From an uncultured delta proteobacterium (GTDB lineage: Bacteria; Desulfobacterota; Binatia; Binatales; Binataceae): DNA of 64,000 nucleotides. The position numbers were made by a program, and so were the translations under genes. Below the pieces are notes generated by a model that did not search any database, was not told the origin of the DNA, and saw only the letters and a program-made list of their open reading frames with translations. Numbering within the stretch: position 1 is the stretch's first letter; every line of letters starts with the position of its first letter. The stretch is taken from contig CAWCMA010000011.1 in the NCBI GenBank assembly GCA_963796565.1, positions 198,039 through 262,038 of the forward strand, in the 5' to 3' direction. This document shows, in pieces, positions 44,364 to 64,000 of this stretch.

Positions 44364-46562
44364 CTACTCGAACGCGCCTATATCATTGCCAGCGTTTTGC
44401 GGCCGCGATTGGCCCGTGTAGTCGTGCGTGACCAGGGGTTCAGCGGTGCCAGCTCCGATCAGAGGCGAGCCGGCGCCAAGCGTGAAGTTGAGCCCCGAGG
44501 CGTTGACGAAATCCGGGTTTTCATTAAGGGACGGCGCGTTACTACCGTAGGTCCCGGGCTTAGACCCATCGGCCATCCACATGTCATTGCTTTCGGCCGT
44601 GTAAGTTGCCGAACCGCTATCGGCGGATAGGTAATTGTCGCCGCCGTTACCAACGTTGTAAAAGATGTTGTTGGCAATATCCGCATCAGTGTTCTCGATC
44701 AGGTCGACGCCCTCCTGGGTCACCGTATCGATGGTGTTGTTGTAAAATCTCACGTCGATGGGACCACCGCTGGTGCCGCCATCGACCAACAACCCTTGGA
44801 AGAGATTGATAAACACATTGTTCATGAACAGCAGGCCGCTGGTGGCGCCGGAACTCTGCTCGATCATGGCGATGTGATTGGTTCCGCCTCCGCTGTTGCC
44901 CGGCCCCGGGAGCTGGCACCAGTTGGAGTCGAACGTCATGTTACTGGCCGGTCCCCAACTCTGGAAGCAATCGGTATGCGGGTTGGTGTTGTAGGTTGTG
45001 CCGGGCAGGGGGATGTTCTCGATGGTGTTGTTCACAAACTGCCCATTGGTGCCGAAGAAGCGGAACCCGTCGGCGTCGGCCCCGTTACGCCTCGCGCATC
45101 CCGACGGCAACTGGTAGGTCCCATCGACCACGTTTCCCTTGACCAGGTAGCCGTCGCCGTCGAGTTGCGCGCCGGCCATCTCAGTGTGCAGGAACGTATT
45201 GTTAAGCAAGGTGGTGTTGGCGGAGGACGGTTCGACGTAAACTCCTTCTGCGCAAAGATTTTGAATCTGGTTGTTTTCTATTAAATTTCCGATGCCATCA
45301 ACATGAATGCCAATATCGCCCGGATCGCCATTGGCTTTGAAGTCGATCGTGAAACCGCTGATTACGATCCAGTTTGCAGCGACATCGAAACCCTTCATGG
45401 TCACTGCGCCGGTCGCCGACGGATCGATCTCGAAAGTGATCGGAGTCGACTGCTTGCCTGAAGTCGAGACCGACACGCGCTCGGCATAGGTGCCCGGTTC
45501 GACCAAGGTCGTATCACCCGGACGCATCGTCGCGGCGGCATGGCCTATCGTCAGCCAGGCCGAAGCAATTGATTGCCCGCTGCTCGAGTCGCTCCCGGTC
45601 GGCGCTACATAGTAGGTGTTGCCCGCAGTCGGGGTCGGTGTTGCCTTCGGGCTCGGCGTCGGCGTAGGAGCCGGTGCCGGGGTCGAGGTTGGTTTGGGCG
45701 TGGCTATCGGGGTCGAAGTTGGTGGAGGCGTTGCGATCGGCGTCGGAGCCGGTGACGATGTAGGTTTTGGCGTCGGTGGCGGAGTTGGAGAAGGAGCTGG
45801 AGTCGGGGTGGGTGTCGCGCCAGATGTTCCGGAGCTGGATAACAGAGCGATCAGCGCTCCGACGTTACTTGCACTGCGAGACGCGGTGCCGACCTCGTTG
45901 CCGGTCGCACCTCCCGTCGTGGCCGCGTCGCCCATCCCGATGCCGATGCCATAGCCGGTAGCCCTGAAGGACCAGCGCATCGCCATACTCGACGGCGGAT
46001 TGATCGGGGCGCCAGAGGCAAGACCAAAGAAACCCAGAAGTAGATATGTACTGCCGTTAGCCGGGATCGAAATCGACGGCGCGACCACGCTCGTCGAGCT
46101 TGGATTGGCTTCGCCGCCTTGAGCGGCGACCGGTGATGAGGTATTGACGCCGGCATAGTCCGCGATTCCGGCCGCGGCGTCATTGCCACCAGTGAAGGAC
46201 CAGGTGTAGTTGGACGGTTCGCTCGCGGGTGCATTCGAGACACGAGTATAGATCGCCTGCGCGATTGCGCCACCGTAGTTGTCGCGCCTTACCATGGTCC
46301 AGCCTGAGGGCGCGTGGATAGGCAGGTTCGTACCACCGCGGATAGCGATCTGTGCGACCAGTAGATCGCCGGCCGCAACAGTCGATGGCCGCGTCAGAGT
46401 AAGGTAATTGCCGCCACCGTTGGCGGTGCTCGTAGTGACGACCGTTCGAAGCGTTATTCCGGTCTGACCTGTGGACGATTGTGCAGGACTGCTCAACCCC
46501 ACGAGTAGGAGAATGAATCCGGCAAGAAGATAACCTCCCGCCACACCACGCCGATGGCCCAT
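44364..46562 (-). CDS. Secreted modular protein: signal peptide, beta-rich N domain, Pro/Thr linker, right-handed beta-helix with a choice-of-anchor-Q-like end
   Basis: Hydrophobic leader ending SPAQS; YYVAPTGSD...GDT..V.PGTY; repeated NN-turn strands; SPLIGAG...D..G..RP....DIGAFE. Confidence 0.8.
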   Translation of the reverse strand: MGHRRGVAGGYLLAGFILLLVGLSSPAQSSTGQTGITLRTVVTTSTANGGGNYLTLTRPSTVAAGDLLVAQIAIRGGTNLPIHAPSGWTMVRRDNYGGAIAQAIYTRVSNAPASEPSNYTWSFTGGNDAAAGIADYAGVNTSSPVAAQGGEANPSSTSVVAPSISIPANGSTYLLLGFFGLASGAPINPPSSMAMRWSFRATGYGIGIGMGDAATTGGATGNEVGTASRSASNVGALIALLSSSGTSGATPTPTPAPSPTPPPTPKPTSSPAPTPIATPPPTSTPIATPKPTSTPAPAPTPTPSPKATPTPTAGNTYYVAPTGSDSSSGQSIASAWLTIGHAAATMRPGDTTLVEPGTYAERVSVSTSGKQSTPITFEIDPSATGAVTMKGFDVAANWIVISGFTIDFKANGDPGDIGIHVDGIGNLIENNQIQNLCAEGVYVEPSSANTTLLNNTFLHTEMAGAQLDGDGYLVKGNVVDGTYQLPSGCARRNGADADGFRFFGTNGQFVNNTIENIPLPGTTYNTNPHTDCFQSWGPASNMTFDSNWCQLPGPGNSGGGTNHIAMIEQSSGATSGLLFMNNVFINLFQGLLVDGGTSGGPIDVRFYNNTIDTVTQEGVDLIENTDADIANNIFYNVGNGGDNYLSADSGSATYTAESNDMWMADGSKPGTYGSNAPSLNENPDFVNASGLNFTLGAGSPLIGAGTAEPLVTHDYTGQSRPQNAGNDIGAFE
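45627..45815 (-). repeat. Pro/Thr-rich low-complexity linker
   Basis: TPTPTPAPSPTPPPTPKPTSSPAPTPIATPPPTSTPIATPKPTSTPAPAPTPTPSPKATPTPT. Confidence 0.85.
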
Positions 46563-47019
46563 GTTGTTCCCCCTTGATTGTCGAATCGCCCCGCAACTTG
46601 TTCCGGCGAGAGTGAAGTCAGTTTCATTTGCACGCGCGGGCGGAGAAGCGTTCGCCTTGACGCCGATGGCAAATTTGCTGTTCGGCTTTTCCGGCGATGC
46701 CTGTTCAGCGCAGCCATCATTTCGCCATCGAAAGTTGCAGAATTATTCGCCCAGACCACTAACGGAATATTGCTGGCAGGGGAAGCTCTGAATTAAAAAA
46801 AACCAAGCCTTTTCACGTATTTAGGGCATATCCCGGTTATAATGACTTCTACCTTCTTCAATCCTTTTTTGAACGGCCGAAGCGTGACGCGTCAATGAAC
46901 TATCGCCAAATTTGAGCGTTAACCCGCGATGACTGGCAGGGCAGTAAGAGAGAACGAGCTCGCAGTTCAGTCCGCGAGTTTCGGCGGAGCGTGCTTACGA
47001 TCAACGATGAATCGCGAGA

Positions 47020-48459
47020 TCAGCGAGAATGAAACGCGCCGATATCGATGTGACCGAGCTGCTCTGGCGGACTACCAGGACTGTCGGCGCCGAGCCTTAC
47101 GCCCGCGCCGATTAGCGGCGATGAAGACTGCAGACGAAAATCGAGTGCCGACGGGTCGACGAATTTCGGATCGACCGTTAAATGACCGGCGCTGCTGCCG
47201 TAACTGCCGGGAGCGGCCCCGTCGCTCATGTACATGTCGTTCTTGCTGGCGACGAAATCAGCCGAAGCGGCGTCAACCGCCAGAAAACCATCCTTATGAC
47301 TGCCCACGTCGTAAAAGATGTTGTTGTCAATTTGTGCGCGCGGCGTGTTACGCAAAACCACCGCCTCCTGCTGCATGTTGACGACGGTATTGTTTATAAA
47401 TCGAAGGCCGGTGATCCCACCTGGAGCGCTACTGTAAACGATCAATCCCTGCCCCAGGTTGGAGAAGAAGTTGTTTATGAACAGTAGGTTCACCACCCGT
47501 CCGGACTTGTCTTCAATCATACCGATATGGTTGCTGGCCCCGCCTGAAGCTACGCTGGGAGCCGGCATCCGGCACCAGTTCGAATCGAAGGTCATATCGG
47601 CGGCAGGTCCCCAGCTCTGGAAACAATCCGTATGCGGATTGAGATTGTACTGGGTTCCGGGCACCGCAATGTCGTGAATGCGATTGCCGCGGAAAATGTG
47701 GCCGCGGCCGAAAAACCGAAAGCCGTCGGCGTCAGCGCGGTAACGCCGCGCACATCCGGGCGGATATTGGCGGGTGTCGGCAACGTCATTGTACTCGACC
47801 AGATTGCGCTCGCCGCCAATTTGCGCGCCGCTCATCTCGGCGCGGACTATGGTATTTCGGCTGATGATGTTACCGGACGCGGCGCTCGATGAGCCGCTGC
47901 CGTCGGTGGCAAAAATTCCCTCAAAGCAGAGGTCGTGAATACTGTTGCCACTCACGACATCGTGCGAACCGGTGAGGTAGACGCCAACTCCCCGCTCTTG
48001 CGTGGCGTTATGATTGGTTATTTCGAAGCCTGCGATCTCGACGTAGTTCCCTCGAATTTCAAAGCCCTGGACCACTACCTTTGCTCCCCTCGCCGCGATC
48101 AATTTGATTGGGTGTCCAGCCTCGCCGGAAACGTTGATAACGACCCGCTCATCGTAGGTGCCCGCTGCTACCAGCACCGTGTCGCCAGGCTTGGTTAGTT
48201 CGGCGGCGCGCTGTATCGTCCGCAAGGGAAGCTTCTGCGACAACCCAGGGTTAGAATCCGCACCAGATAACGCTACATAGAATGTTTTACCATCAGAGAC
48301 GAGGGCATTCCGGGCGACCACGGTCGTTTGATCCTGGCCCTCGGTGATGCGCTCCGTAGCAGTATAAAGACCGTTTCGCTGACGCAATTGCCTTGTTTTG
48401 GGGACGGCAGCCAGGCCGATGAGGGCGCATCCGACAGCGATCACAAAGCTCGGTTTCAT
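47020..48459 (-). CDS. Right-handed beta-helix protein with an N-terminal hydrophobic segment; paralog of the C-domain of 44364..46562
   Basis: FYVALSGADSNPG...GDTVLVAAGTY; shared ADADGFRFFG and NPHTDCFQSWGPA..MTFDSNWC; start at 48459 or 48474. Confidence 0.82.
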   Translation of the reverse strand: MKPSFVIAVGCALIGLAAVPKTRQLRQRNGLYTATERITEGQDQTTVVARNALVSDGKTFYVALSGADSNPGLSQKLPLRTIQRAAELTKPGDTVLVAAGTYDERVVINVSGEAGHPIKLIAARGAKVVVQGFEIRGNYVEIAGFEITNHNATQERGVGVYLTGSHDVVSGNSIHDLCFEGIFATDGSGSSSAASGNIISRNTIVRAEMSGAQIGGERNLVEYNDVADTRQYPPGCARRYRADADGFRFFGRGHIFRGNRIHDIAVPGTQYNLNPHTDCFQSWGPAADMTFDSNWCRMPAPSVASGGASNHIGMIEDKSGRVVNLLFINNFFSNLGQGLIVYSSAPGGITGLRFINNTVVNMQQEAVVLRNTPRAQIDNNIFYDVGSHKDGFLAVDAASADFVASKNDMYMSDGAAPGSYGSSAGHLTVDPKFVDPSALDFRLQSSSPLIGAGVRLGADSPGSPPEQLGHIDIGAFHSR

Positions 48460-48487
48460 AAAACTCACCACCAAATTCTGATTTCTC

Positions 48488-48502
48488 GCGACGCGATGCC
48501 AG
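48488..48502 (-). promoter_or_regulatory. Possible sigma54 -24/-12 element
   Basis: CTGGCATCGCGTCGC (GG-N10-GC) just upstream of the second beta-helix gene. Confidence 0.25.
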
Positions 48503-48661
48503 ATTCTCCAACAGGCATCATGCTTTGACCTCTTCTAAAATGAGGCTCGATCCGAACTAGTCGGCAATTTTCGTCATTTATTCGCTCATGACAGATCACA
48601 GATCAATGACTTGATGTTTAAATCATTGCCTTTCGCGCGCTATCTTTAATTTACCGCTCGT

Positions 48662-48690
48662 TTGACAACTTCAGACTCTTGACCCATTCT
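48662..48690 (+). promoter_or_regulatory. Probable sigma70-type promoter of the EPS export operon
   Basis: TTGACA-17 nt-CATTCT in an AT-rich divergent intergenic region. Confidence 0.5.
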
Positions 48691-48730
48691 AATCTAGCTG
48701 ATACTTACTTACCAATAGGTAATTCAGGTT

Positions 48731-49489
48731 ATGTTCTGCTATTTTAGGATTTGGTCATCATTGTTAATCGTTTTGTTGCTGTTAACCGTCATCATCGGTG
48801 GATGCTCCTCTGCCGGAGTCAGCTCAGACACGCGTCAGGCGGCGCCTGCAATCGGCACTCAGATTTCGCCCGAGACCTGTGCGGCAATGGCCAGCGCGGA
48901 TACTGGGACGCAAGACGAAGCCAGCTACCAAATTCAGCCGGGTGACGTGCTCGGTATTCGCTTCTATATGAGCCCGGAGCTTGACGATGAGCCTACAGTC
49001 CGTCCCGACGGCAAAATAACCGTACGTGAGGTAGGCGACGTGGTTGCGGCAGGACGGACGCCGGTGCAACTCGCGGCCGCTCTGGACCAAGCGTATTCGA
49101 CCGAGCTCAGGGCACCAGAGGCCACTGTACACGTCAAGGCCACGCCGAGTCGCCAGGTCTATGTGGACGGGCAGGTCTCGCATCCAGGAAGCTTCGCACT
49201 CGAGCCGCGGATGTCGGCGATACAGGCGGTTGCCCAGGCGGGTGGAGTGACCGAGGATGCGGCGCCCACGGCGGCGTTGCTCATACGGCGCGATCAATGC
49301 GGGCGGCCGAGCGGGATTGGATTCGATCTGGCGCGAGCAGAGAAACAGCCGGAAAGCGATCAGGACGTGCGGCTTTTGCCAGGCGATATCATCTACGTCC
49401 CGCGCAGCAAGATCAGCGAGATGGGTCTCTTCGTTAAGCACTACGTGAAGGACCTGTTGCCGGTGCAGCCGTATCTCCCGATTTTTTAG
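48731..49489 (+). CDS. Polysaccharide export lipoprotein (OPX/Wza family, short form)
   Basis: Lipobox IIGGC; PES motif YQIQPGDVLGI...VRPDGKITV..VGDV.AAG.T; one SLBB domain; C-terminal amphipathic helix ending LLP. Confidence 0.88.
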   Translation: MFCYFRIWSSLLIVLLLLTVIIGGCSSAGVSSDTRQAAPAIGTQISPETCAAMASADTGTQDEASYQIQPGDVLGIRFYMSPELDDEPTVRPDGKITVREVGDVVAAGRTPVQLAAALDQAYSTELRAPEATVHVKATPSRQVYVDGQVSHPGSFALEPRMSAIQAVAQAGGVTEDAAPTAALLIRRDQCGRPSGIGFDLARAEKQPESDQDVRLLPGDIIYVPRSKISEMGLFVKHYVKDLLPVQPYLPIF

Positions 49490-49506
49490 CGCAATGGAGT
49501 CTTCGT

Positions 49507-51021
49507 TTGCCTAACAATTTTGCAGCCTGGATCGAATTGCTGTTCAGACGATGGCATCAGTTCATCTACTGGACCGCCGTGGTGTTCGCGTCGGTGGTCG
49601 TAGTCACGATGCTGTGGCCGCCCTCCTATGTATCGAGCGCCAAGATTCTGGTGCAGGACGATCGCGCCCCGCTGCCCGCATCGCCGGCGATCGAAGCCGC
49701 GCCGCAAACCCTGCAGGGTTCCGTCGACTCCGCACCCGCGGAGCAGGACATGAACTCCGAGATGGAGCTGCTCACCAGCGCGTATCTCATCCAGCAGACC
49801 GTCGCAGGTCTCACGCCGGCCAAGAAGAGTCTTGCTGAACGCCTGATGGCGTCCATTTCGACATGGATGAATCTGCCCAACACTCTATACACCCTGCTAC
49901 ATACCGGGCCTGTGCCTGATGCGCAGCATCTTTGGATCGAAAAACTCGGCCGCCATCTCGACTGCACCTTGATCAAACGCTCGAACATAATCGAGGTAAC
50001 GTTTGCCAGCCGCAACGCGCAGTGGTCGCACGACTTTCTTGCGCACCTGCTGGACCATTACCTGCAACTTCGCGGAGAGATTTCCCACGACCCCCAGGCC
50101 GAGCGCTTCTTCATGCATCAGGCGGAATTGCTGCGGACGAAGCTGGTGCAATCGCAGAACAGGCTGCGCGCGCTGGAGGTTCAGACCGGGGTCACCGATT
50201 TCGACGAACAGCAAAAAGCGGTTGTCGATCAGCTCGCGTCCTTCCAGGCGAAATACCGCAAAAATCAATCAGACCTGGCGGGGACCGTCGAGCAGGTAGA
50301 CTATCTAAGCAAGGAAATTCAGAAATATCCGGAACGGATCGATACCGAGGCGAAAACGGTCCAGAACATCGCCTTGCAAACGTTGAAACCACAAGTACTA
50401 AAGCTCGAAACCGAGAAGGCCGAGTTGCTAAGCCGCTATCTGCCGGATAGCAAGCGAATCCAGTCGATCGATGCCGAATTGCAAGCGGCGCAGACCCTGC
50501 TGCGACACGAAAACACTCGTGACGTGCAGGAAGTCAGCACCAGCATAAACCCCATCTGGCAAACGCTATCCAGTACGCTGGCCCAGGCCAAGGTCACTGC
50601 CGCCGCGCTGACGGCGAGCCAGACCGAACTGGCCCAACAGATCGCGATCTATCAGCAGCAGTTGAAGGACGTCGGCGACAACGGGGTCGAGATCGAACAG
50701 TTACGCCAACAGGTCGACACCGACAAGGAAATATACTTGTCCTACCTGCGTAAAGGAGAAGAGGCGCGTGCGGCCGCTGCACTCAATTTGAATAAGATCC
50801 TCGACGTGAATGTCGCCGAACCGCCGACGCTGCCAGTCGAACCAAGCTTTCCCAAAATGTCTATCAATCTGGTTGCCGGACTTCTGCTCGCCTGGGCTAT
50901 AGCCTTCGCGATCATATATCAGGCCGAGATGCGCGATCCGCGGATTTACTCGCCGGAAATGGTAAGCGAGGTCAGCGGTGTGCCGACCATAGCGGTCGTC
51001 TCGATCGCCATCAGAGAATAG
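49507..51021 (+). CDS. Polysaccharide co-polymerase / chain-length determinant (GumC/Wzc N-part)
   Basis: Two TM segments, PPSYVSSAKILV, long coiled coil, VAEPPTLPVEPSFP before TM2, RDPRIYSPE..S...GVPTIAVV. Confidence 0.88.
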   Translation: MPNNFAAWIELLFRRWHQFIYWTAVVFASVVVVTMLWPPSYVSSAKILVQDDRAPLPASPAIEAAPQTLQGSVDSAPAEQDMNSEMELLTSAYLIQQTVAGLTPAKKSLAERLMASISTWMNLPNTLYTLLHTGPVPDAQHLWIEKLGRHLDCTLIKRSNIIEVTFASRNAQWSHDFLAHLLDHYLQLRGEISHDPQAERFFMHQAELLRTKLVQSQNRLRALEVQTGVTDFDEQQKAVVDQLASFQAKYRKNQSDLAGTVEQVDYLSKEIQKYPERIDTEAKTVQNIALQTLKPQVLKLETEKAELLSRYLPDSKRIQSIDAELQAAQTLLRHENTRDVQEVSTSINPIWQTLSSTLAQAKVTAAALTASQTELAQQIAIYQQQLKDVGDNGVEIEQLRQQVDTDKEIYLSYLRKGEEARAAAALNLNKILDVNVAEPPTLPVEPSFPKMSINLVAGLLLAWAIAFAIIYQAEMRDPRIYSPEMVSEVSGVPTIAVVSIAIRE

Positions 51022-51024: not shown

Positions 51025-52425
51025 ATGTATTACTCGTACTTCGGTCTGAATGCCGCGCCATTTCAGCTCACCCCTACCCAGGGTATGCCATTTCTCGGGC
51101 GTACGCATCGCGAGGCCCTGGCCGCGCTCGAATGGGGAATGACTGATCCGAACGGGTTTGCGCTTCTGATCGGCGAGCCCGGGACTGGCAAAACCTCGCT
51201 CATCCTGACTCTGACGGAGGCGGATCACGCGGGCATCCGCGTGATTCATATCAATCGGCCGATAGCATTCAAGGAAATCGTACACTTGATCGCAAGCGAG
51301 GCTGGCATCGCGGAATGCGACGAGCCCTCGATGGAATTCATGCAGTCGTTCCGCGAACGTATGGCTTTCCAGAAGCTCCGGCCTGTAATCATCATCGACG
51401 AAGCGCAAGGCCTGGCGGACGAGACCCTCGAAAGCCTGCGGCTGTTAGCCAATGATGCCGCGGACGGACGGTTTGCCTTGCAGATGATTTTGGTCGGTCA
51501 GCCCGATCTGCTGAATCGGCTCAAACGCTCACCACTGCGAGCGTTGGACCAGCGTATCAGCACGCGCGCCGTGCTGAAGCGTCTCGAGCGTAGCGAGGTC
51601 CACGATTATATCGATCATAGACTGCAGATTTGTGGCTCCAGCGCGGCGCAACTTTTCAGCGCCGCCGCGATGCGCGCTCTGACACGGCGCGGGTCACGCA
51701 TTCCACGCGAAATCAATTTGCTCTGTCATAATTCGCTCATTCTTGCGTACGCCGCCGGGCGGGACCGTGTGGACGCATCCATGGTGCGAGCGGCGGCCGC
51801 GGAATACGAGACCCAGGCCCGGTCGATAGGCCGCTCCGGCTTGGGCGGCTTCTTCGACCGTCTGCGCAATTTTCAGAATTTGTCCCGCGGCGGTTTGGTA
51901 ATAGCTACATTGCTGGGCGGAGCGGCATTAGGCTGGCCGCTGGCCGCGCATACGCGGGCGGCGATGCGTCCACGTTTCTCGAAACCGAGCGTGGCCGCCG
52001 AGGTTACTCTCGAAACGCCGGCGAACGACAGTGCGCGCGGTGAGGTTGCGCGGGTCGATCAGAGCGACGGAGATCGGGCTGCCCAGGCCGTTACTCCCAC
52101 AGATCGACCCGCTCAGTCCGTAGTCGCCCCTGATCAGTCCGCGCAGCCCGTTGCTGCTTTGGGTCAGCCTGCCCAGCCCGTTACGCCCACAGCGCTGGAA
52201 CGGCCGGCACAGCCTCAATCCCCGAATTCGACTTCATCGAACACCAGTCCGCTCAGGGCGGTCGTGATCGAAGCCGGCGACAACCTCAGCAGCATTGCAG
52301 AGCAATACCTCGGTTCGAAGGAACCAGCCGCAATTCAGCGGCTGGTCGCGGCGAATCCGCAGATATCGGATATGAACCTGATTCATCCTGGCGAAATTGT
52401 TCATTTGCCTTCCGGGGACAAGTAG
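51025..52425 (+). CDS. ExeA/GspA-family AAA+ ATPase with a TM segment, repeat linker and C-terminal LysM domain
   Basis: MYYSYFGLNAAPF, Walker A GEPGTGKT, Walker B IIIDEAQ, ILVGQPDL, G.PREIN.LC; LysM VIEAGDNLSSIA...NP.I.D.NLIHPGEIVHLP. Confidence 0.88.
   Translation: MYYSYFGLNAAPFQLTPTQGMPFLGRTHREALAALEWGMTDPNGFALLIGEPGTGKTSLILTLTEADHAGIRVIHINRPIAFKEIVHLIASEAGIAECDEPSMEFMQSFRERMAFQKLRPVIIIDEAQGLADETLESLRLLANDAADGRFALQMILVGQPDLLNRLKRSPLRALDQRISTRAVLKRLERSEVHDYIDHRLQICGSSAAQLFSAAAMRALTRRGSRIPREINLLCHNSLILAYAAGRDRVDASMVRAAAAEYETQARSIGRSGLGGFFDRLRNFQNLSRGGLVIATLLGGAALGWPLAAHTRAAMRPRFSKPSVAAEVTLETPANDSARGEVARVDQSDGDRAAQAVTPTDRPAQSVVAPDQSAQPVAALGQPAQPVTPTALERPAQPQSPNSTSSNTSPLRAVVIEAGDNLSSIAEQYLGSKEPAAIQRLVAANPQISDMNLIHPGEIVHLPSGDK
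52081..52218 (+). repeat. Degenerate 30-nt (10-aa) tandem repeat in the ATPase linker
   Basis: AQAVTPTDRP / AQSVVAPDQS / AQPVAALGQP / AQPVTPTALERP / AQPQ. Confidence 0.8.
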
Positions 52426-55984: not shown

Positions 55985-57424
55985 ATGTTCGCAGGCGAAC
56001 AGCGCAGGCAGAAAGCCATTTTTGCGATTGTAGACGCGATCGCGATACTGATCGCGTTTCGTGGCGCGCTCGCGCTGCATGATCCATATCACCTTATGAC
56101 GGCGCGGCTCCATCAAGCCAACCCGTCGCTAGTCTACGGCGCCATCATCGTGCTCGTTGGCATGTGGCTGATGGTATTTCACGCCTGCGATCTATACCGC
56201 TTTAGAAGCGGCGGCGTGCGTGAACTGGCGCACATCGTTAAGGCTTGCATGATCGCAACCGCGCTAAGCCTGTTGCTTGGGTACTTCGCACATCTGACTG
56301 ACGTTCCGCGATTGCTCATTGGGACCGGATTTCTGCTCAGTATCGGCCTGGTGGTGCTCGGCCGCACGGTTACGCGCGATCTGATCCGATCGCTGTATGC
56401 CGATCCCAAGATTACCATCCCGCTCGCGATCGTCGGTTTCACGCCGCTGGCTCACTTCCTGTGTGATCAGATTGTTGAGGATCTGAGTCAATACGAATTT
56501 CTCGGGTTTTTCGATGATCATGCGCTCGCGAATGCGGCCCATCGAGGTTTCCCGGTGCTTGGGGCGACGACGAGGATCGGAACGCTCAGGGCGGCGCATC
56601 CGAATCTCGAAGTCATTATCGTGTGCGCCGATGAAGCGGACGAGGACTGCCGCAACGTAATCCGGACGTGCGAGGCAAGCCGCGTTCGATGGCGAATGGT
56701 GCCGCCCCTTTGGCGCTCGATACCTGGGGCTCTGCGCTTCGATCTAATTGGCGGCGTCCCGCTGCTCGGTCCCAGTTCATCGAACATCGAAGGGCTCAAC
56801 TTTATTCTCAAGCGGGTCTTCGATGTTGTGGTCGCGGGCGCCGCGCTGGCCGTCGCGCTACCCGTGATGCTGCTGGTGAGCGTTGCAATCTGGATGTTTG
56901 ACGGACGGCCGATTCTGTTTCGCCAGAGGCGCGTCGGAATCCGCGGCGAAACCTTCGAATTGTTGAAGTTTCGAACCATGCGTCCGGGCAGCGACAGCAT
57001 CCACCGCGAATACGTGCGTAACTGGATAACTGTAAATGGCGATGCCAAACTCAGTGACTCCGATGGCACAAAAGTCTTCAAACTGGTGAACGACCCGCGC
57101 GTGACCGGGATTGGACGGATACTGCGCCAGTTTTGTCTCGACGAAATGCCACAGTTGATAAACGTGCTGCGCGGCGAGATGAGCCTGGTGGGGCCGCGAC
57201 CTGCACTGCCCTACGAGATCGAGTTATATCAGGATTGGCACAAGCGCAGACTCGAAGGTTTGCCGGGAATCACCGGGCTTTGGCAAGTGGGAGGGCGTAA
57301 CCAGCTCGGCTTCGACGAGATGGTACGACTGGACATCGAATACCTTGATGGCTGGAGCTTAAGCGAAGATCTTAGAATTCTGCTCCGAACAATTCCCGCG
57401 GTATTGTACGGGTCCGGTTATTGA
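55985..57424 (+). CDS. Priming polyprenyl glycosylphosphotransferase (WcaJ/WbaP family)
   Basis: N-terminal TMs; KRVFD, FRQRRVG, KFRTM, DPRVT, LDEMPQ, GEMSLVGPRP, PGITGLWQV. Confidence 0.93.
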   Translation: MFAGEQRRQKAIFAIVDAIAILIAFRGALALHDPYHLMTARLHQANPSLVYGAIIVLVGMWLMVFHACDLYRFRSGGVRELAHIVKACMIATALSLLLGYFAHLTDVPRLLIGTGFLLSIGLVVLGRTVTRDLIRSLYADPKITIPLAIVGFTPLAHFLCDQIVEDLSQYEFLGFFDDHALANAAHRGFPVLGATTRIGTLRAAHPNLEVIIVCADEADEDCRNVIRTCEASRVRWRMVPPLWRSIPGALRFDLIGGVPLLGPSSSNIEGLNFILKRVFDVVVAGAALAVALPVMLLVSVAIWMFDGRPILFRQRRVGIRGETFELLKFRTMRPGSDSIHREYVRNWITVNGDAKLSDSDGTKVFKLVNDPRVTGIGRILRQFCLDEMPQLINVLRGEMSLVGPRPALPYEIELYQDWHKRRLEGLPGITGLWQVGGRNQLGFDEMVRLDIEYLDGWSLSEDLRILLRTIPAVLYGSGY

Positions 57425-57563: not shown

Positions 57564-58379
57564 ATGAATCGAGGCAAGCCACTAGTCGTTGGTCTTGGTG
57601 AAGTGGGCGGGGCGCTCAGGCAGGTCCTCGAGGCGAATGGTCCTGTGTGGCTCCTTGACGTCGAACCAGTTGAAATAACCGGACCGATCAGCGTGATGCA
57701 CGTATGCTTCCCGTTTCAGCAACGACGAGGCTTCGTGCCGGCGGTGGTTGAGCGGATCAAGCAGTTAGCACCGTCCCTGACCGTAATCAACAGCACCGTA
57801 TTGCCTGGCACTACTCGATCCATCGCTTCGGCCACTGGCTCTGCGGTTGCATACAGCCCAATCAGAGGCAAGCACGCAAAGATGGTCGAAGACCTGCGAC
57901 ACTATACCAAGTTCGTCGCTTCTCCCGATCCTGAGACAGCGCAGCGGGCCGAAGAGCATTTCCGTTCGCTCGGCATGAAAACCTCGATTATGGCCGAGCC
58001 CGAAACGCTGGAACTCGCTAAACTAGGCGAGACCACCTATTTTGGGATCCAAATTGCCTTCGCGCAGGAATTGAATCGCTATGCCGAGCGTGTCGGCGGA
58101 CAGTATTCGGAGGCGGTGAAGTTTTTCGAAGAAGTCGATTTCTTGCCCCGGGTAAACTATTTCCCGGGTTTCATTGGCGGACATTGTGTGATTCCGAATA
58201 TCGATTTGCTGCTGGAGATAGAAGGCTCTCCTCTGCTGGACGCTATTTTGGAATCGAATGTGCGACGCGCGGAGGAATTGAAAAAGAAGACGACCAACAA
58301 CGGAACCAATAAATCAATTCGGCGCATCGGTCTGAACGGTATTTCGGATAGACTCGCCGACCCATCCCACGAAAAGTAG
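57564..58379 (+). CDS. Short UDP-glucose/GDP-mannose dehydrogenase-like protein lacking the C-terminal domain
   Basis: GLGEVG, NSTVLPGTT, AKLGETTY, IAFAQEL, PGFIGGHC; 271 aa. Confidence 0.7.
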   Translation: MNRGKPLVVGLGEVGGALRQVLEANGPVWLLDVEPVEITGPISVMHVCFPFQQRRGFVPAVVERIKQLAPSLTVINSTVLPGTTRSIASATGSAVAYSPIRGKHAKMVEDLRHYTKFVASPDPETAQRAEEHFRSLGMKTSIMAEPETLELAKLGETTYFGIQIAFAQELNRYAERVGGQYSEAVKFFEEVDFLPRVNYFPGFIGGHCVIPNIDLLLEIEGSPLLDAILESNVRRAEELKKKTTNNGTNKSIRRIGLNGISDRLADPSHEK

Positions 58380-58426: not shown

Positions 58427-58729
58427 CTAATGATGTCGCTGAGTTTCGGACGGATCGACGCGGCAACGATTGAGAAATTGCTCGACATCACTCCTGCGGA
58501 ACCGCTTGACGCGTCCGATCGAGTGATACGGCAGCTCACCTCTACGAGCCAAGCGATAAATCGTCATTTCAGTGATCTGGAGCAGACTGGCCAGCTGCTT
58601 TGCGGTCAAGAACAGTGACGTACCGAGAAAGCCATTGACATCAGAATCCACTTCGGCCGCCTTTGGGCGCTGTGAGCCACCCGAGCCCTCATTGACGCGA
58701 TCGTGATCGTCATGTGTCTTTGCCATCAT
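58427..58729 (-). CDS. Excisionase/MerR-like (HTH_17) DNA-binding protein
   Basis: LTAKQLASLLQITEMTIYRLARRGELP...IGRVKRFRRSDVEQFL; start at 58729 or 58765. Confidence 0.82.
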   Translation of the reverse strand: MMAKTHDDHDRVNEGSGGSQRPKAAEVDSDVNGFLGTSLFLTAKQLASLLQITEMTIYRLARRGELPYHSIGRVKRFRRSDVEQFLNRCRVDPSETQRHH

Positions 58730-58830
58730 TGCACCCTTCCATCCTTCCTGCGAGCCAGAATTCATTCTTCGTTCATATCGAGTGATTTGTCAACCTTCGG
58801 GATGATTTGACTGCACCGGAGGCCTGAAAG

Positions 58831-58959: not shown

Positions 58960-59031
58960 GAACGGTGACGGCAGGGGATCTCTCAACGGCTGATATCAAT
59001 CCTTAGCGGGCGTGGACTCTTTAAAGAAGAG

Positions 59032-59304
59032 ATGAATCAAACTCATATGGATCACTTGCAACGGGCCACAGACGCGATCAAGGTCACGGTCATCCTCTCA
59101 AACCAGCAGATTGTTTTCCTGGACAAGCTGGCGAACGAAATACGGGCCAGAAACGGCGCGATTGTGAGGCGAACAGGCGTGATTCGCGCACTGGTCGACG
59201 CTTTGGCGGAAGCTACCCTGGACGTAACCGCCGCGCGCTCGGAGCAGGATCTGCGATACCTTTTCTCGACTTTGCTTCACGAAAGTTCCGCTCGGTTGGA
59301 ATAG
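59032..59304 (+). CDS. Small protein with a ribbon-helix-helix-like pattern
   Basis: KVTVIL strand, NQQIVFLDKLANEIR helix, RRTGVIRALVDAL helix; 10 nt upstream of the ligase gene. Confidence 0.6.
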   Translation: MNQTHMDHLQRATDAIKVTVILSNQQIVFLDKLANEIRARNGAIVRRTGVIRALVDALAEATLDVTAARSEQDLRYLFSTLLHESSARLE

Positions 59305-59314
59305 CGATTCCTAA

Positions 59315-60880
59315 ATGCCTACGTCCCTAGACCATCAGCGCAAGATCGCTATCACCTTTGGCCCGGTTCGAAAGCACTTTCCGGCCTCGCACGGCCTGAA
59401 GCCGGTTGCTGCAGCGGGGATCGCCTTGGCGGTCCTTGCAGCGTTCTCTTGCACCGTTGTGGGCCCCCTTAGCGGCCTCACCATCGCGTTGACCGGTATC
59501 GTCGGTGCGATCTTCCTGGCGTGGAGCGCTACCTACACAACACGCCATCACGAATGGCTGCTCTTCGCGCTGCTGATGATCGAGGTGTTAACCTCGGCTG
59601 CCGCTATGCCGACCAGCGTCAATACCGCGGCGCGGTATGGTCTCGAGGCGCTGTTCTGCCTACCGATTGTTCCAGCCTTCGTGCGTTCCGGGGTTTGGCG
59701 CAAGGGCGGATTTCGACTTTTCCTGATGTACATGGCGTGGGCGCTGATAACGGTGAGTTATTCGCTCGCACCGATGTTTTCTCTTGGCCGAATCGTGAAT
59801 ACCCTGACTTTGTTCTCAGCGGTGAGTCTGTGCGCTTCAGAGATACATGACCGGCGTGACTTGCATCGGTTTGTGAGACCGTGCGTGCTCGCCTGTTCGC
59901 TGTTGGTCGCGCTACTGGCACTCTCGGTTGCAGTTTTGCCCTCTAGTCAGGTATGGGCGAGCGACATAATACTCAATGCGGCCGGCCGCGTGATCTGGAA
60001 CGGATCGGGAGGGATGTTGCGCTTTGAGGGCTTTCTTCGTACGCCCAACGAGCTTGGCGGGGCGATGTTAACCACGGTGGCGTTCGCGCTGGTCTACTGG
60101 AGCGCGGCCTCGCGCCGCGAGAAGCTGCTGCTGGCTTCGCTAATCTTGTTCGCGAGTGGCTTTACGGCACTAGCCGACTCGCGAACTTCGCTGGCCGCTG
60201 TTTTGGTCGGCGTCGCTGCATACATTGTCTGGAAGTACCGGGTTCGCGGCCTGCTGGCGTGCGCGGGCGCGACGATGCTGATGCTGGTGGTTCTGACTAT
60301 CGCGGGACATGGCGCGAAAGCGTACGTGAACCGTGGCGACGTCACCACTTTTACTGGACGTTCGGAGGTCTGGTCCTACACAGTCAATCAAATCAAGCAT
60401 CGTCCCCTTTTCGGCTATGGCTATGAAGTTGAGGGTGCGATTCTCGACCAGAGATTTCCGCTATGGTATGGACCGTGGGACGACGGCCCGCATAGCTCTC
60501 TACACGAGAACTATCTTGCGCGTGCGGTTGGAGTGGGTATACCCGCAACACTACTATGGCTATTCATCATGTTGCGCCCCTGGATGACTCTGTTTCGCGA
60601 GAAGAGCGGCGACGCGCTCGGCCTTAAGCGGCTTGGCCTCTTCGCCGCGCTACCGGTGTTCGTGCTCAACTTCGCCGAGAGTTCCGCTGCGGATTGCCGC
60701 TCCGCCGTCGGGATCTTGATGATCTTCGCTTGGGCAGTGGCGGAAATGCACAGGCTATCGAAAGCCGCGCCCGAGCCCGGCGCGGTGCGTGAACTGCTTC
60801 AGTCCGACGGCCGCTCCAAAGTGCGATCTGGATCGGTGCTTGTCTTCGACCGTGGCTCTCCGTTGCCCAGGGCTGGTTGA
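59315..60880 (+). CDS. O-antigen ligase/Wzy polymerase family membrane protein
   Basis: Many TM segments; PNELG, DSRTS, TFTGR..VW, HRPLFGYG, LHENYL. Confidence 0.85.
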   Translation: MPTSLDHQRKIAITFGPVRKHFPASHGLKPVAAAGIALAVLAAFSCTVVGPLSGLTIALTGIVGAIFLAWSATYTTRHHEWLLFALLMIEVLTSAAAMPTSVNTAARYGLEALFCLPIVPAFVRSGVWRKGGFRLFLMYMAWALITVSYSLAPMFSLGRIVNTLTLFSAVSLCASEIHDRRDLHRFVRPCVLACSLLVALLALSVAVLPSSQVWASDIILNAAGRVIWNGSGGMLRFEGFLRTPNELGGAMLTTVAFALVYWSAASRREKLLLASLILFASGFTALADSRTSLAAVLVGVAAYIVWKYRVRGLLACAGATMLMLVVLTIAGHGAKAYVNRGDVTTFTGRSEVWSYTVNQIKHRPLFGYGYEVEGAILDQRFPLWYGPWDDGPHSSLHENYLARAVGVGIPATLLWLFIMLRPWMTLFREKSGDALGLKRLGLFAALPVFVLNFAESSAADCRSAVGILMIFAWAVAEMHRLSKAAPEPGAVRELLQSDGRSKVRSGSVLVFDRGSPLPRAG

Positions 60881-61125
60881 ATCTGACCACATATGGCCGC
60901 GAAGCGATCGTGCCTTGGCCGTATGTTTCTTATCGGCTGTGGGCCGCATCTTGTGGCACAGGATTTTCTGAGCCGCCGCCGAATTGCGTTTCGCAATAGA
61001 GCATCTTTTCACTAGCCAAATCGTACAAGCCACTTTAATGCTGTCGTCAACTTTGCCATCTTAAACGGTGACCGCGTACGATTTCAGCGTAGCGCCGAAC
61101 GGCGAGCGTGTGGGAGGCCTGTCTG

Positions 61126-62802
61126 ATGCCTCGGATCACTCGAAGAGAACTCTTGACGACCGGACTACTGGCCGGAGGCTCGATTTTCGCAGGCGATCTG
61201 GCGTCGCGACTGTTGAATCTAGCCGGGCCGGCGGTTTCTGAGTATTACCGCGAAGGCGCGTTATATGCTGGCGAATCACCAATGCCGCAGCCGACTGGAC
61301 AGTCAAGGGCTCGGCTGAATCCGAAGCTGCTTACGCCTTTTGTCGATCGCTTGACGGTTCTGCCGACCAAACGGCCAGACGGCACTCGTCCGAGCCCTCT
61401 GAACACAGATGTACAGGTGCCTTACTATCGAGTTGTGATGCGTCAAATCGCAGCGAAGGTCCATCGGAATTTGCCTCCCACCACGGTGTGGGCGTATGAC
61501 GGGAGTTCTCCGGGACCTATAATTGAGGCGCGCTCGGGGCGGCCTTTGATGGTCGAATGGGTGAATGATCTTCCGCGAACGCACCTGCTTCCAATCGACC
61601 ACAATTTGTGCGGCGCGGAGCGTGGAACGCCGGACGTTCGGACGGTGGTTCATCTGCATGGCGCGCGGGTTACCGCCGAAAACGACGGTTATCCCGAGCA
61701 ATGGTACGTACCGGGCAAATCGGTGGTTTACTTCTATCCAAACCAGCAGGACGCGACGACGCTTTGGTATCACGACCACGCGATGGGCATCACGCGGCTG
61801 AACATCTTTGCCGGCCTGTTCGGTCTCTACGTCATTCGCGATCCCGTCGAAGATCGACTGAACTTGCCGCGCGGCAAAAACGAAATCGCGCTCACGATTT
61901 GCGATCGTGACTTCGATACTCAGGGGCAGCTCAACTATCCGGTTTCGCCCGATCCGGCAGCGCCGTGGGTTTCCGAGTTCGTCGGCAATGCGATCCTGGT
62001 AAACGGAACGCTCTTTCCCTTTTTTGAAGTCGAACCGCGGCGCTATCGATTGCGTCTGACCAACGTCTCGAATGGACGCACGTTCCATCTGATCTTCCCT
62101 GACGCGAAGATGTGTCACCTTATCGGCTCCGATCAGGGATTGCTCAACAGGCCGGTTGCGGCCCCCGAAATTGTACTCGCGCCGGCCGAACGCGCCGACC
62201 TAATCGTCGATTTCAGCGGTAGTGGTGGCAAACAACTGGTCATCCGCAATGACGCTGATGCGATCATCCAATTTCGTGTGTCGACCAAGCCGGTCAAGGA
62301 TCGCAGTGAGTTGCCCGCAACGTTAAGGCCGCTCGTTCGATTGCCGGAATCGCGAGCCGTCAAGACTCGCGTCCTGACTCTTGATGACCAAGAGGATAGT
62401 AATGGGAATCCGAAAATAATGATGCTCAACGGCAGCCGGTGGCGTATGCCGGTGACAGAGAACCCGGTGCTGGGCACCACCGAAATCTGGTCGTTCGTCA
62501 ATCGAACCGACGATGTTCATCCCATTCATCTGCATGCGATAAAGTTCCAGTTGCTTGATCGGCGAGTATTCGATCCGGTCGCATTCATGAAGTCGCGGAC
62601 TCTGAGCTACAACGGTCCGACGGTTCCTCCCGATCCAGCCGAAGCCGGATGGAAGGATACCGTACGTGCGTTCCCTAATATGGTCACCCGGATCATCGTG
62701 CCGTTCGACGGCTACGTCGGGCGCTACGTATGGCATTGTCATATTCTCGAGCACGAAGACAATGAGATGATGCGTCCGTATGAGATCGTGGCAGCTAAGT
62801 AG
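61126..62802 (+). CDS. Tat-exported three-domain multicopper oxidase (CotA/bilirubin oxidase/PhsA-like)
   Basis: Twin-Arg ITRRELL; HLHG, WYHDH, HPIHLH, HCHILEHEDNEMM (Met axial ligand); RBS GGGAGG before ATG 61126. Confidence 0.92.
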   Translation: MPRITRRELLTTGLLAGGSIFAGDLASRLLNLAGPAVSEYYREGALYAGESPMPQPTGQSRARLNPKLLTPFVDRLTVLPTKRPDGTRPSPLNTDVQVPYYRVVMRQIAAKVHRNLPPTTVWAYDGSSPGPIIEARSGRPLMVEWVNDLPRTHLLPIDHNLCGAERGTPDVRTVVHLHGARVTAENDGYPEQWYVPGKSVVYFYPNQQDATTLWYHDHAMGITRLNIFAGLFGLYVIRDPVEDRLNLPRGKNEIALTICDRDFDTQGQLNYPVSPDPAAPWVSEFVGNAILVNGTLFPFFEVEPRRYRLRLTNVSNGRTFHLIFPDAKMCHLIGSDQGLLNRPVAAPEIVLAPAERADLIVDFSGSGGKQLVIRNDADAIIQFRVSTKPVKDRSELPATLRPLVRLPESRAVKTRVLTLDDQEDSNGNPKIMMLNGSRWRMPVTENPVLGTTEIWSFVNRTDDVHPIHLHAIKFQLLDRRVFDPVAFMKSRTLSYNGPTVPPDPAEAGWKDTVRAFPNMVTRIIVPFDGYVGRYVWHCHILEHEDNEMMRPYEIVAAK

Positions 62803-63025
62803 ACTTCACGAATTCTTCGAAGCCTCGTTCGGCAACAGGCGCACGGCGGGAGCTGCATTATAGTAAAGCGCAGCCTCCTCGACTTCTGTGCGTCATGATT
62901 GCTTGGCGCCGCGGCTGTGCTGGCGCAGACAGTGTGTTCGCCGACTGCCAGTCAGCGGATTCACTGATCCTGACTTAAGGCTCGGGTGGAGACCCGTCGG
63001 CCATTGGCTATGAGGGCGAACTTGG

Positions 63026-64000
63026 CTAAGAAGCCGGTCGGTCCTGCAATGGCGGCTCCGCTCGGCCGCCCGGTTTGCCCGCAGCGCAGGACGGCATTCC
63101 CTCTCGGCCGAGCGCTTCCTCGATATGCGCGCACACCGTCGCGAAGTGATCGTCCCACTTCCGCCCGAGTGAGCGCTTGAGTCCGCGCATCTCGGAGCGC
63201 AGGCGATCGGCGGATTTGTCCGCTTCCAGCACCGCGTTACGGATACTCTCCGGAGAATTGTCAACGTACAGTGCCCCAGCACTGAAATAGTTCTTGAGCA
63301 CAGGCCAGTCCGAGGTGATTAGTGGCTTTTCGACCGCCACCGCCTCGTAGGCACCGCACAGCAAGGTAAGGTCGCGCTTCACCAGCACCATCACTGCGTC
63401 CGCGCGATGGAGCAGAGAGACATAGTCCGAGCGCGGAACGAAACCGGTGAACGTAACGTTGCGTGGGGCGGCCGCCAGGATCGGAGCCATTTGTTTCGGA
63501 GCGCGTCCGGTGACGAAAAAACGGTACTCCGGCAGGGTCTTGGCGGCGGCGAGCACGGCCTCGAGGGGTTCGTCCTGGGCAAACGAACTTACTACTACGA
63601 CCTTGAAGCGGTCGTCGCTCGGAACGGGAAGATCGGGCACACGATCCTCGAGCACCATCGCCGGAGCGCCCCACGATTGGACCATCTGGCGCAGCGGCTC
63701 GTTGGTAACGATCGTGCCCGCTGCGCGGCGCGACAGAAAGCGATGGACGGAAAGAAAATACTTCCATTTCCCATCAAACGCGCCAGTATGCGAATCAATT
63801 ACAAGTTGAGCGTCAAGCATCCGAGCGGCCGCATATGCAATTAGCGGCAGGACGATGGGCGGATTGCTCACTACGATAAGTTCGGGACGCTCCCGCCACA
63901 GCACCGCCAATGTATCCAGCGATTGCAGCAGATATCGCAGTGGCACGAATATTCGCGGTGCGCCCTTCATTCGCTCGATATAAAAGTCGCGGGCGCCGAG
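63026..64000 (-). CDS. Glycosyltransferase (GT4-like), 5' end outside the window
   Basis: NPPIVLP, IDSHTGAF, SSFAQDEP, FTGFVP, GAYEAVAVEKPLITSD; frame open to the window edge. Confidence 0.82.
   Translation of the reverse strand, partial: LGARDFYIERMKGAPRIFVPLRYLLQSLDTLAVLWRERPELIVVSNPPIVLPLIAYAAARMLDAQLVIDSHTGAFDGKWKYFLSVHRFLSRRAAGTIVTNEPLRQMVQSWGAPAMVLEDRVPDLPVPSDDRFKVVVVSSFAQDEPLEAVLAAAKTLPEYRFFVTGRAPKQMAPILAAAPRNVTFTGFVPRSDYVSLLHRADAVMVLVKRDLTLLCGAYEAVAVEKPLITSDWPVLKNYFSAGALYVDNSPESIRNAVLEADKSADRLRSEMRGLKRSLGRKWDDHFATVCAHIEEALGREGMPSCAAGKPGGRAEPPLQDRPAS

Follow-up and report, generated by a model that had tools for sequence, protein, structure and literature searches.

A conserved Binataceae locus predicted to export a polysaccharide with a lysine-less pseudokinase and an ExeA-like ATPase

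What does a gene cluster make when its polysaccharide export genes are accompanied by a kinase-like protein without the Walker-A lysine, an ExeA-like ATPase and two exported beta-helix proteins, and how could its export step be controlled? We addressed this question for a stretch of 64,000 nucleotides (hereafter the window; C11:198039-262038) from the genome of an uncultured delta proteobacterium of the family Candidatus Binataceae (13 contigs, 4.67 Mb, 96% complete). An original prediction, made from the letters of the window, had described a candidate undescribed exopolysaccharide (EPS) or surface-matrix system with an unusual export module and dedicated beta-helix enzymes; on gene calling by open reading frame (ORF) listing with Pfam and NCBIfam scans, all of the genes that it had named were found in place. 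The locus is about 36 kb long, from window 44.3 kb to approximately 80 kb in window-equivalent coordinates, and the window holds its first two thirds (Table 1). We consider it probable that this locus directs the synthesis of a Wzx/Wzy-dependent secreted or capsular polysaccharide, with a scaffold pseudokinase, an accessory ATPase and glycanase beta-helix proteins. The most fitting description is a variant of the XrtA-like Wzx/Wzy EPS machinery that is confined to Binataceae and has no exosortase.

A scan with an alignment of the pseudokinase, using one genome per species, returned 45 loci (tblastn E 3e-138 to 9e-29) labelled Candidatus Binataceae, 'uncultured delta proteobacterium' or 'Proteobacteria bacterium', after which the next matches (E 3e-11 and weaker) were ordinary kinases of other phyla. 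The co-occurrence of components that the original prediction had offered as its test was borne out, the export and sugar core being present as a colinear cassette in about 45 species-level genomes of the window's family. When the window proteins were mapped onto 47 loci, many of them cut by contig ends, the pseudokinase was found in 47, the GFO/IDH/MocA oxidoreductase (GFO) and the hexapeptide N-acetyltransferase (Hex) in 44 each, the polysaccharide co-polymerase (PCP) and the outer-membrane polysaccharide export protein (OPX) in 42 each, the DegT aminotransferase in 41, the polyprenyl-phosphate glycosylphosphotransferase that would prime synthesis (PGT) in 40, the ATPase in 37–40, the Wzx flippase in 34, a deacetylase-like protein in 32, a family 4 glycosyltransferase (GT4) in 31, a mini-dehydrogenase in 22 and a FemAB-like protein in 15. 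Two metagenome contigs, reached through homologs of the ATPase (35–43% identity), carry the cassette as a single colinear operon in the order OPX, PCP, ATPase-LysM, kinase-like protein, GFO, Hex, DegT, PGT, Wzx, FemAB-like protein, (GT2), deacetylase-like protein and GT4. The gaps between genes in the window, which range from −4 to +20 nt from OPX through PGT, make this segment likewise consistent with one operon. Strong pseudokinase matches were obtained in 22 of the 301 genomes sampled in the window's class, all of them from the window's own family. Transfer from another phylum was considered and rejected: the restriction of the pseudokinase to the window's genome among 401 phylum-wide genomes is a sampling effect, as the 22 genomes of the class sample show.

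Several Binataceae genomes hold two or three paralogous cassettes (L059/L062, L064/L071, L068/L077, L069/L070, L073/L081 and L046/L079), and three paralogous pairs have the ATPase gene in one copy and not in the other.

The stand-alone kinase-like protein has the P-loop GSGDGASS, in which the Walker-A Lys is replaced by Ala, and a Walker A′ motif, DGNLRR (DAHLR in the family), in which the second Asp is lost; the protein retains the Walker-B Asp and has no tyrosine tail. Its family profile aligned with the kinase domains of CapB, VpsO, BceF, Etk and Wzc (E 9e-12 to 5e-7), and an AlphaFold (AF2) model with a pLDDT of 76 retrieved Wzc K540M and BceF (probability 1.00), together with CapAB, Etk and VpsO. 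The best NCBIfam matches were two general models of BY-kinases (bacterial tyrosine kinases), TIGR01007 and TIGR03029. The loss of Lys, noted in the original prediction for the window protein, proved to be a fixed trait of the family: all of the 120 best homologs have another residue in place of Lys (GDG[A/T/V/C]S[T/S]), and every one of these has 0–1 Tyr within its last 25 residues. A profile search of 1.84 billion cluster representatives yielded 50 proteins (clusters at 50% identity) with E < 1e-30, and the top 65 of 150 representatives were all Lys-less, with canonical Wzc proteins bearing both Lys and Tyr starting at rank 66. The family comprises at least 272 clusters at 90% identity with E <= 1e-5.

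Because the genome also encodes two canonical BY-kinases (G000:C1:221880-224288 and G000:C7:10945-12402) with GEGKT, DxDLR/DxDMR and tyrosine-rich tails, the Lys-less protein is a distinct paralog. One of the two canonical kinases is fused to a PCP and the other adjoins another OPX gene; the genome therefore holds at least four OPX/PCP-type systems. Three long PCP-fused proteins, P0403 (718 aa), P0454 (657 aa) and P0423 (486 aa), have the P-loops DGASTV, EGTSTV and EGASTI and are also Lys-less, so the natural loss of Lys is not limited to stand-alone members of the family.

The PCP encoded beside the pseudokinase has transmembrane (TM) segments at 19–37 and 452–470 with a long periplasmic region between them, and its matches to Wzz and GNVR are weak. 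Its cytoplasmic C-terminal tail is conserved (RDPRIYSxxxVxExSGVxTIA) and resembles the juxtamembrane segment that activates CapB in the CapA/CapB pair. Pairs of a PCP-2 and a BY pseudokinase were described in 2025, namely EcpK/EpsV for the EPS of Myxococcus xanthus and HfsB/HfsA for the holdfast of Caulobacter (Blocher et al., PMC12004946), and to speak of an undescribed export module is thus too strong, the export genes being moreover distant relatives of the XrtA set. The likeness, drawn from the published description, extends to a stand-alone BY-kinase fold without catalytic residues or tyrosine tail, to a kinase-less PCP-2 in a Wzx/Wzy pathway and to a short cytoplasmic C-terminal PCP tail that could dock the pseudokinase. 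There are three differences: EcpK lacks any Walker motif (PMC12004946), whereas the window family keeps the P-loop glycines, Ser/Thr and the Walker-B Asp; ecpK is distant from epsV, whereas here the PCP and pseudokinase genes are adjacent or separated by the ATPase gene only; and neither published system has an ExeA-like ATPase. By analogy with the role proposed for these pairs, the window pseudokinase would bind the cytoplasmic C-terminal tail of the PCP and act as a phosphorylation-independent scaffold of the PCP oligomer.

Upstream of the PCP gene, the OPX has Poly_export at 62–135, SLBB at 142–223 and the lipobox IGGC, and lacks an outer-membrane-spanning C-terminal helix. Class-3 OPX proteins consist of Poly_export-SLBB(n) only, measure about 256 aa and have no Wza_C helix (Saidi et al., PMC9603273). 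The window protein, a 252-aa lipoprotein with Poly_export, one SLBB and no C-terminal pore helix, therefore belongs to class 3 of that scheme, and the class-3 OPX proteins of Myxococcus require a partner beta-barrel porin (PMC9603273).

The sugar genes point to the composition of the repeat unit. The DegT aminotransferase matched QdtB (1e-75) and WbpE (9e-68) among PDB entries, and the best matches of the acetyltransferase were 3mqg (named by its depositors a lipopolysaccharides biosynthesis acetyltransferase), which we take to be WlbB, a WxcM-like protein and QdtC. The GFO oxidoreductase, 60–71% identical across cassettes, is likely to be a UDP-GlcNAc(A) 3-dehydrogenase. On the strength of the DegT, Hex and GFO matches and of a WecB-type epimerase encoded further along the contig, a 2,3-diacetamido-2,3-dideoxy hexose is predicted in the repeat unit, possibly as a ManNAc-type epimer or uronic acid. 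The same adjacent trio of GFO 3-dehydrogenase, DegT 3-aminotransferase and hexapeptide N-acetyltransferase is found in the WbpB-WbpE-WbpD (WlbA-C-B) pathway of Pseudomonas aeruginosa and Bordetella, which leads to UDP-2,3-diacetamido-2,3-dideoxy sugars; unlike that pathway, the window locus has no full-length WbpA-type 6-dehydrogenase but only a 271-aa mini homolog, and the sugar that its trio acts on may be the GlcNAc or the GlcNAcA form. Homologs of this mini-dehydrogenase (56–61% identity) close 22 cassettes, usually right after the GT4 gene, and since they measure about 255–300 aa in all of them, the short form is itself conserved and did not arise by truncation in the window alone.

Two further proteins may modify the repeat unit. 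One, u408, is better conserved (55–66% identity, 32 loci) than any other protein of the cassette except those of the sugar module; its family profile matched the CE4 polysaccharide deacetylase 3rxz (E 3e-8) and its LTHDVE motif is invariant. The other is the FemAB-like protein, and together the two may further N-deacetylate and aminoacylate the sugar. A role of u408 as the Wzy polymerase was also considered and ruled out by its lack of TM segments and its remote CE4 deacetylase homology.

The two beta-helix proteins would be exported glycanases, lyases or hydrolases, that trim, release or remodel the polymer, by analogy with RbmB, AlgL and PslG. They are 46% identical to each other and share NPHTDCFQSWGP; the first (bh1) carries GADADGFRFFG and the second (bh2) RADADGFRFFG, in the order listed. 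In bh1, a signal peptide is followed by an N-terminal domain of ~200 aa, a Pro/Thr linker, a right-handed beta-helix and a choice-of-anchor-Q-like end. The AF2 model of bh2 (pLDDT 85.6) is a right-handed parallel beta-helix, and Foldseek matched it to GH136 lacto-N-biosidases, PL9 Pel9A, a rhamnogalacturonan lyase, PL6 alginate lyases, chondroitinase B and RbmB, with a probability of 1.00 and E 1e-11 to 1e-6 for GH136, PL9, PL6 and RbmB, at a TM-score of only about 0.4–0.55 and a sequence identity of 10–19%. Near-invariant residues of the family are D248, D250, R253, H281, D283 and Q286. We regard bh2 as a candidate lyase or hydrolase of polysaccharides that is secreted or anchored to lipid. 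It shares its fold with RbmB (the Vibrio cholerae VPS lyase), PL6/PL9 and GH136, and with RbmB also the location beside a matrix polysaccharide locus; the conserved motifs DADGxRFFG and NPHTDCFQ are features of the window family itself.

These proteins may serve the cassette, as the original prediction held, or they may act more generally, as secreted glycanases or adhesins directed at foreign polysaccharides, and simply have their genes in a variable region beside it. Homologs of bh2 were found in 33 of 151 genomes in a family-wide search. No beta-helix gene lies within 10 kb of about 40 type-A cassettes, that is, of most of them, weaker homologs (38–41% identity) are unlinked to a cassette in at least 10 genomes, and some of the enzymes with a matching fold have plant or host glycans as substrates, all of which would suit a general role. 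Yet of 16 genomes with orthologs of at least 43% identity, 12, which belong to four genera and vary in gene arrangement, have the ortholog 4–22 kb from a pseudokinase gene, and the N-terminal domain of bh1 recurs in another exported protein of the locus: it is present twice, at 40–41% identity, in the C-terminal half of the DMFA2_C protein, which hints at a shared binding module. We therefore regard a general, non-dedicated role as possible though doubtful, and the beta-helix genes as plausibly dedicated to one cassette subtype, outside the universal core. The subtype in question, type B, runs from HTH_17 gene(s) and OPX through PGT to Wzx, GT4, mini-dehydrogenase, Wzy_C and then a beta-helix gene, and genome G781 repeats the arrangement of the window, with its beta-helix and OPX genes diverging. 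Homologs of the DMFA2_C protein also flank cassettes in L046, L064, L069 and G781.

The ATPase has intact Walker A (GEPGTGKT) and Walker B (IIIDEAQ) motifs, a TM segment at 290–308, a Pro/Gln linker and a C-terminal LysM that scored slightly below its cut-off (19.7 against 20.9 bits) and recurs in more than 20 homolog clusters; the tails of its relatives are LysM, SPOR, PG_binding_1, OmpA or TPR. Like ExeA/GspA of the Aeromonas hydrophila type II secretion system (T2SS), it joins an AAA_22 domain in the cytoplasm, through one TM segment, to a domain that binds peptidoglycan in the periplasm, and it differs in having LysM in place of PG_binding_1 and in its EPS operon context. GspB/ExeB, secretin and other T2SS genes were absent from the locus and the related cassettes, a genome-wide search not having been made. 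For ExeA, a proposed function is to aid the assembly of a multimeric exporter of the outer membrane through the wall (PMC4098917). If ExeA and the T2SS secretin are taken as the model, the window ATPase, as a cytoplasmic AAA+ protein with one TM segment and a periplasmic LysM, would tether the machine to peptidoglycan and help to assemble or position the OPX and an outer-membrane porin across the wall.

A more far-reaching role has also been weighed, in which the pseudokinase locks the PCP oligomer and the wall-anchored ATPase, by hydrolysing ATP, powers the cycle of assembly and disassembly that tyrosine phosphorylation provides in Wzc systems, or the trans-wall assembly of the exporter, a third mode of PCP-2 control. 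It would fit the intact Walker motifs, the lack of any phosphatase gene in the locus by Pfam and NCBIfam scans, and the position of the ATPase gene, which in 35 of 42 cassettes lies in cis between the PCP and pseudokinase genes, with gaps of 3 nt and 20 nt. In the remaining 7 of 42 cassettes, however, the pseudokinase gene comes immediately after the PCP gene; although five of these seven genomes encode full-length homologs of the ATPase elsewhere, two have none (E <= 1e-10), and the pseudokinase is equally Lys-less and degenerate to the same degree with or without the ATPase in cis. Moreover, EcpK/EpsV and HfsB/HfsA are reported to function without such an ATPase (PMC12004946), and a LysM-type homolog, P0022, occurs in a non-EPS context. 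From its absence in 7 of 42 cassettes, the two genomes without a homolog and the unchanged pseudokinase, we conclude that the ATPase is a frequent accessory and not an obligatory substitute for kinase cycling, which the original prediction had seen as replaced by the pseudokinase and ATPase together, and that an ATPase-driven cycle is unlikely. Literature searches returned nothing on the function of the TIGR03015 class of ATPases; if true, such a cycle would give a function to this never-characterized 'XrtA-associated ATPase' class and a third regulatory mode to PCP-2 machines.

The nature of the product bears on the Wzy_C protein. Pfam names its domain 'O-antigen ligase', its sole NCBIfam match is TIGR03097 'O-glycosylation ligase' (30.5 bits), and sugars of the WbpB/E/D type are generally known as classic O-antigen components, so that the glycan might be ligated to lipid A-core or proteins by a ligase of the WaaL/PglL type and never appear as free EPS or capsule. 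We find this unlikely: an OPX and a PCP-2 with a kinase-like partner are, as is generally held, a hallmark of the export of group-1-like capsule and EPS (PMC12004946) and not of O-antigen ligation, and the OPX, PCP and pseudokinase genes are constant, whereas most cassettes have either a variable Wzy_C gene or none nearby. Homologs of Wzy_C (33–40% identity) follow the mini-dehydrogenase in type-B cassettes.

Finally, the 263-aa protein might have kept NTPase or kinase activity through an unusual P-loop. In favour of this, the glycine-rich loop, the Ser/Thr after the lost Lys, the first Walker A′ Asp and the Walker-B Asp are retained, and most family members have an Arg five residues ahead of the lost Lys (GCRPGDGAST) that possibly replaces it. 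We nevertheless consider such activity very unlikely, since that Arg is missing from the window protein (GCGSGDGASS), the Walker A′ motif has lost its second Asp and no family member has a tyrosine-rich tail.

Several observations weigh against a Wzx/Wzy-dependent polysaccharide exported by a scaffolded PCP. The system is known from sequence alone, its host being uncultured, and the role of the ATPase is drawn by analogy only. No gene for an outer-membrane beta-barrel partner was found in the cassette, in that no extra gene family is conserved around the cassettes: all-against-all clustering of stop-to-stop ORFs from their surroundings produced, for the most part, antisense shadow ORFs and revealed no further family upstream. 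The sole porin candidate is a weak TIGR03016-like ORF on contig C5 (G000:C5:428034-429443), which lies beside a different OPX. The retained glycine-rich loop, Ser/Thr and Walker-B Asp of the pseudokinase are compatible with nucleotide binding. The Wzy_C protein, a candidate polymerase, could be a ligase, and most type-A cassettes have no Wzy_C gene within 10 kb. The low TM-scores of bh2 and the lack of beta-helix genes near most type-A cassettes belong here as well.

Among the known systems closest to the Wzx/Wzy-type machinery that we favour are the XrtA/PEP-CTERM (EpsH) loci. XrtA-associated models are the best or only NCBIfam matches of the OPX, PCP, ATPase, FemAB-like protein, one GT4 and Wzy_C (the models involved being TIGR03027, TIGR03007, TIGR03015, TIGR03018, TIGR03019, TIGR04063 and TIGR03097), and as in XrtA loci a cytoplasmic polysaccharide-deacetylase-like gene adjoins the FemAB-like gene. 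The scores, on the other hand, are far under the cut-offs: 111 bits against 180 for TIGR03027 (OPX), 121.7 against 278.85 for TIGR03007 (PCP, E 2.4e-35), 183.7 against 324.5 for TIGR03015 (ATPase), a weak 22 against 231 for TIGR03018 (kinase-like protein) and 81 against 260 for TIGR03019 (FemAB-like protein). The window also departs from XrtA loci in the TM segment and LysM of its ATPase, in the position of the ATPase gene between the PCP and kinase-like genes, in a kinase-like protein that is both Lys-less and Tyr-less and in the lack of a TIGR03016-type outer-membrane protein in the cassette. The original prediction had placed a missing flippase, exosortase and PEP-CTERM protein possibly beyond 64 kb; the flippase gene does lie just outside the window, but the other two are absent from the genome. 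No exosortase (PF09721) match was obtained in the 4.67-Mb, 96%-complete genome, a regular expression for PEP-CTERM-like tails (PEP, hydrophobic run, basic C-terminus) had 0 hits among all genome ORFs of at least 80 aa, and PF07589 (PEP-CTERM) gave no match in the genome, with a control that was itself silent. No characterized system matches the locus gene for gene, as had been anticipated; the pseudokinase family and the gene arrangement are new, and each component class was already known.

A second module in the same genome (G000:C5:424000-435500; L144:8363-19461) is closer to the XrtA type, with an OPX (136 bits), a TIGR03016-like outer-membrane protein, a PCP (150 bits), a kinase-like protein (146 bits) and a FemAB protein (232 bits, near the cut-off). 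Its kinase-like protein has SEGRSF (GRS for GKS, Lys to Arg), DADFD and a single Tyr near the C-terminus, and looks non-canonical.

A full-text literature search for Binatota together with exopolysaccharide returned nothing related. For Binataceae, which are uncultured and widespread in soil, the locus thus sketches a conserved system of polysaccharide export for the first time. The pseudokinases form a discrete, sequence-defined addition to the recently proposed phosphorylation-independent PCP-2 subfamily and are natural equivalents of the Wzc K540M mutant from structural work, and the fixed register of the ATPase with the PCP and pseudokinase opens a way to test what this class of ATPases does in polysaccharide export.

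The contig runs 36 kb further after the window end, and besides the features in Table 1 this part encodes the WecB-type UDP-GlcNAc 2-epimerase, a second GT4 and the FemAB-like protein. Two starts needed attention. That of the acetyltransferase is most likely ATG 54331, which forms an ATGA overlap with the GFO stop, and not 54175; the longest ORF of the GT4 (L001:1026-2780) overlaps the wzx gene, so its true start is probably further downstream.

Table 1. Features of the locus, with window coordinates, or L001 coordinates for genes on the same contig past the window end
Feature	Coordinates	Strand	Length and family evidence
Beta-helix protein 1 (bh1)	44364..46562	-	732 aa; Pfam Beta_helix 32.9 bits, NF041518 36.2 bits
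Beta-helix protein 2 (bh2)	47020..48474	-	484 aa; Pfam DUF1565, Beta_helix, Chondroitinas_B
OPX lipoprotein	48731..49489	+	252 aa; Poly_export 70.7 bits, above cut-off, and one SLBB
PCP-2 co-polymerase	49507..51021	+	504 aa; 2 TM, no kinase domain
ExeA/GspA-like ATPase	51025..52425	+	AAA_22 76.6 bits, LysM 19.7 bits
Stand-alone BY pseudokinase	52446..53237	+	263 aa
GFO/IDH/MocA oxidoreductase	53234..54334	+	Best NCBIfam NF040723 (UDP-GlcNAc 3-dehydrogenase), 173.9 bits, below cut-off
Hexapeptide N-acetyltransferase (WlbB/WbpD/QdtC-like)	54331..54858	+	175 aa; revised start
DegT-family sugar 3-aminotransferase (WbpE/QdtB-like)	54839..55975	+	DegT 345.6 bits
Polyprenyl-phosphate glycosylphosphotransferase (priming, PGT)	55985..57424	+	TIGR03025 356.2 bits, cut-off 295.55; Bac_transf 202.9 bits
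Mini NDP-sugar dehydrogenase-like protein	57564..58379	+	271 aa; TIGR03026 81 bits, partial match
HTH_17 (excisionase/MerR-type) DNA-binding protein	58427..58765	-	PF12728 56.9 bits
90-aa ORF	59032..59304	+	10 nt upstream of Wzy_C gene; no family match
Wzy_C polytopic membrane protein	59315..60880	+	PF04932 59.5 bits, cut-off 31.7; at least 8 hydrophobic segments
Multicopper oxidase (MCO)	61108..62802	+	Twin-arginine leader ITRRELL; Cu-oxidase_2, Cu-oxidase_3
GT4 glycosyltransferase	63026..64000	-	Glyco_trans_4_4, Glycos_transf_1; continues past window end
Wzx flippase	L001:2123-3703 (window-equivalent 64123-65703)	-	Polysacc_synt_3 200.7 bits
DMFA2_C-domain exported protein	L001:4486-7356		956 aa
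CE4-like protein u408	L001:9868-11094 (window-equivalent 71868-73094)		408 aa; no Pfam/NCBIfam match
Amino-acid--[ACP] ligase, ACP, acyl-CoA-dehydrogenase-like protein, group-II PLP decarboxylase	L001:12372-18367 (window-equivalent 74372-80367)		

Downstream of the mini-dehydrogenase, the original prediction had seen an Xis-like/RHH (ribbon-helix-helix) pair. The first member is indeed an excisionase-type HTH_17 gene, homologs of which (47–69% identity) flank the OPX gene in G554, G490, G772 and G781, and its product is likely to be a regulator of the locus. The RHH label of the second was without support, the 90-aa ORF having no match to a Pfam or NCBIfam family. Scans of the divergent intergenic region for promoters and terminators gave results at chance level.

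The G+C content is 0.53–0.61 from window 44 kb to the end of L001, compared with 0.62–0.65 upstream. A mobile island was considered and set aside: no tRNA gene is present in the window from 30 kb on, nor in the remaining 36 kb of the contig. The low-G+C block is closed by the set with the amino-acid--[ACP] (acyl carrier protein) ligase, ACP and decarboxylase, in which the ligase matched NF005479 above its cut-off (436 bits); the set is colinear with that of the sister genome G760 and was not seen within 10 kb of other cassettes.

In G760, which belongs to the same genus, the locus (L037) lies in the same flanks at 78–91% nucleotide identity, and only the LssY_C, MCO and DMFA2_C genes are rearranged. 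The window shares the 90-aa ORF with L037 only, and its MCO, of which no homolog lies within 10 kb in any of the 47 compared loci, only with the sister genome; the two thus fall outside the conserved set, contrary to their earlier listing as members; by this distribution the MCO is probably not part of the conserved system. That it is a pure passenger was too strong a wording, since the gene is kept in the sister locus, at a different place, though absent from other cassettes. The LssY_C gene lies at window 42874-44149, flanked by the DAO oxidoreductase gene on one side and the EPS locus on the other, and in the sister genome at G760:C11:42865-44140, about 40 kb away on the far side of the locus. 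An inversion of the whole locus relative to LssY_C, to which this position in G760 had pointed, was rejected on alignment of the contigs, in which the LssY_C, MCO and DMFA2_C genes alone had moved.

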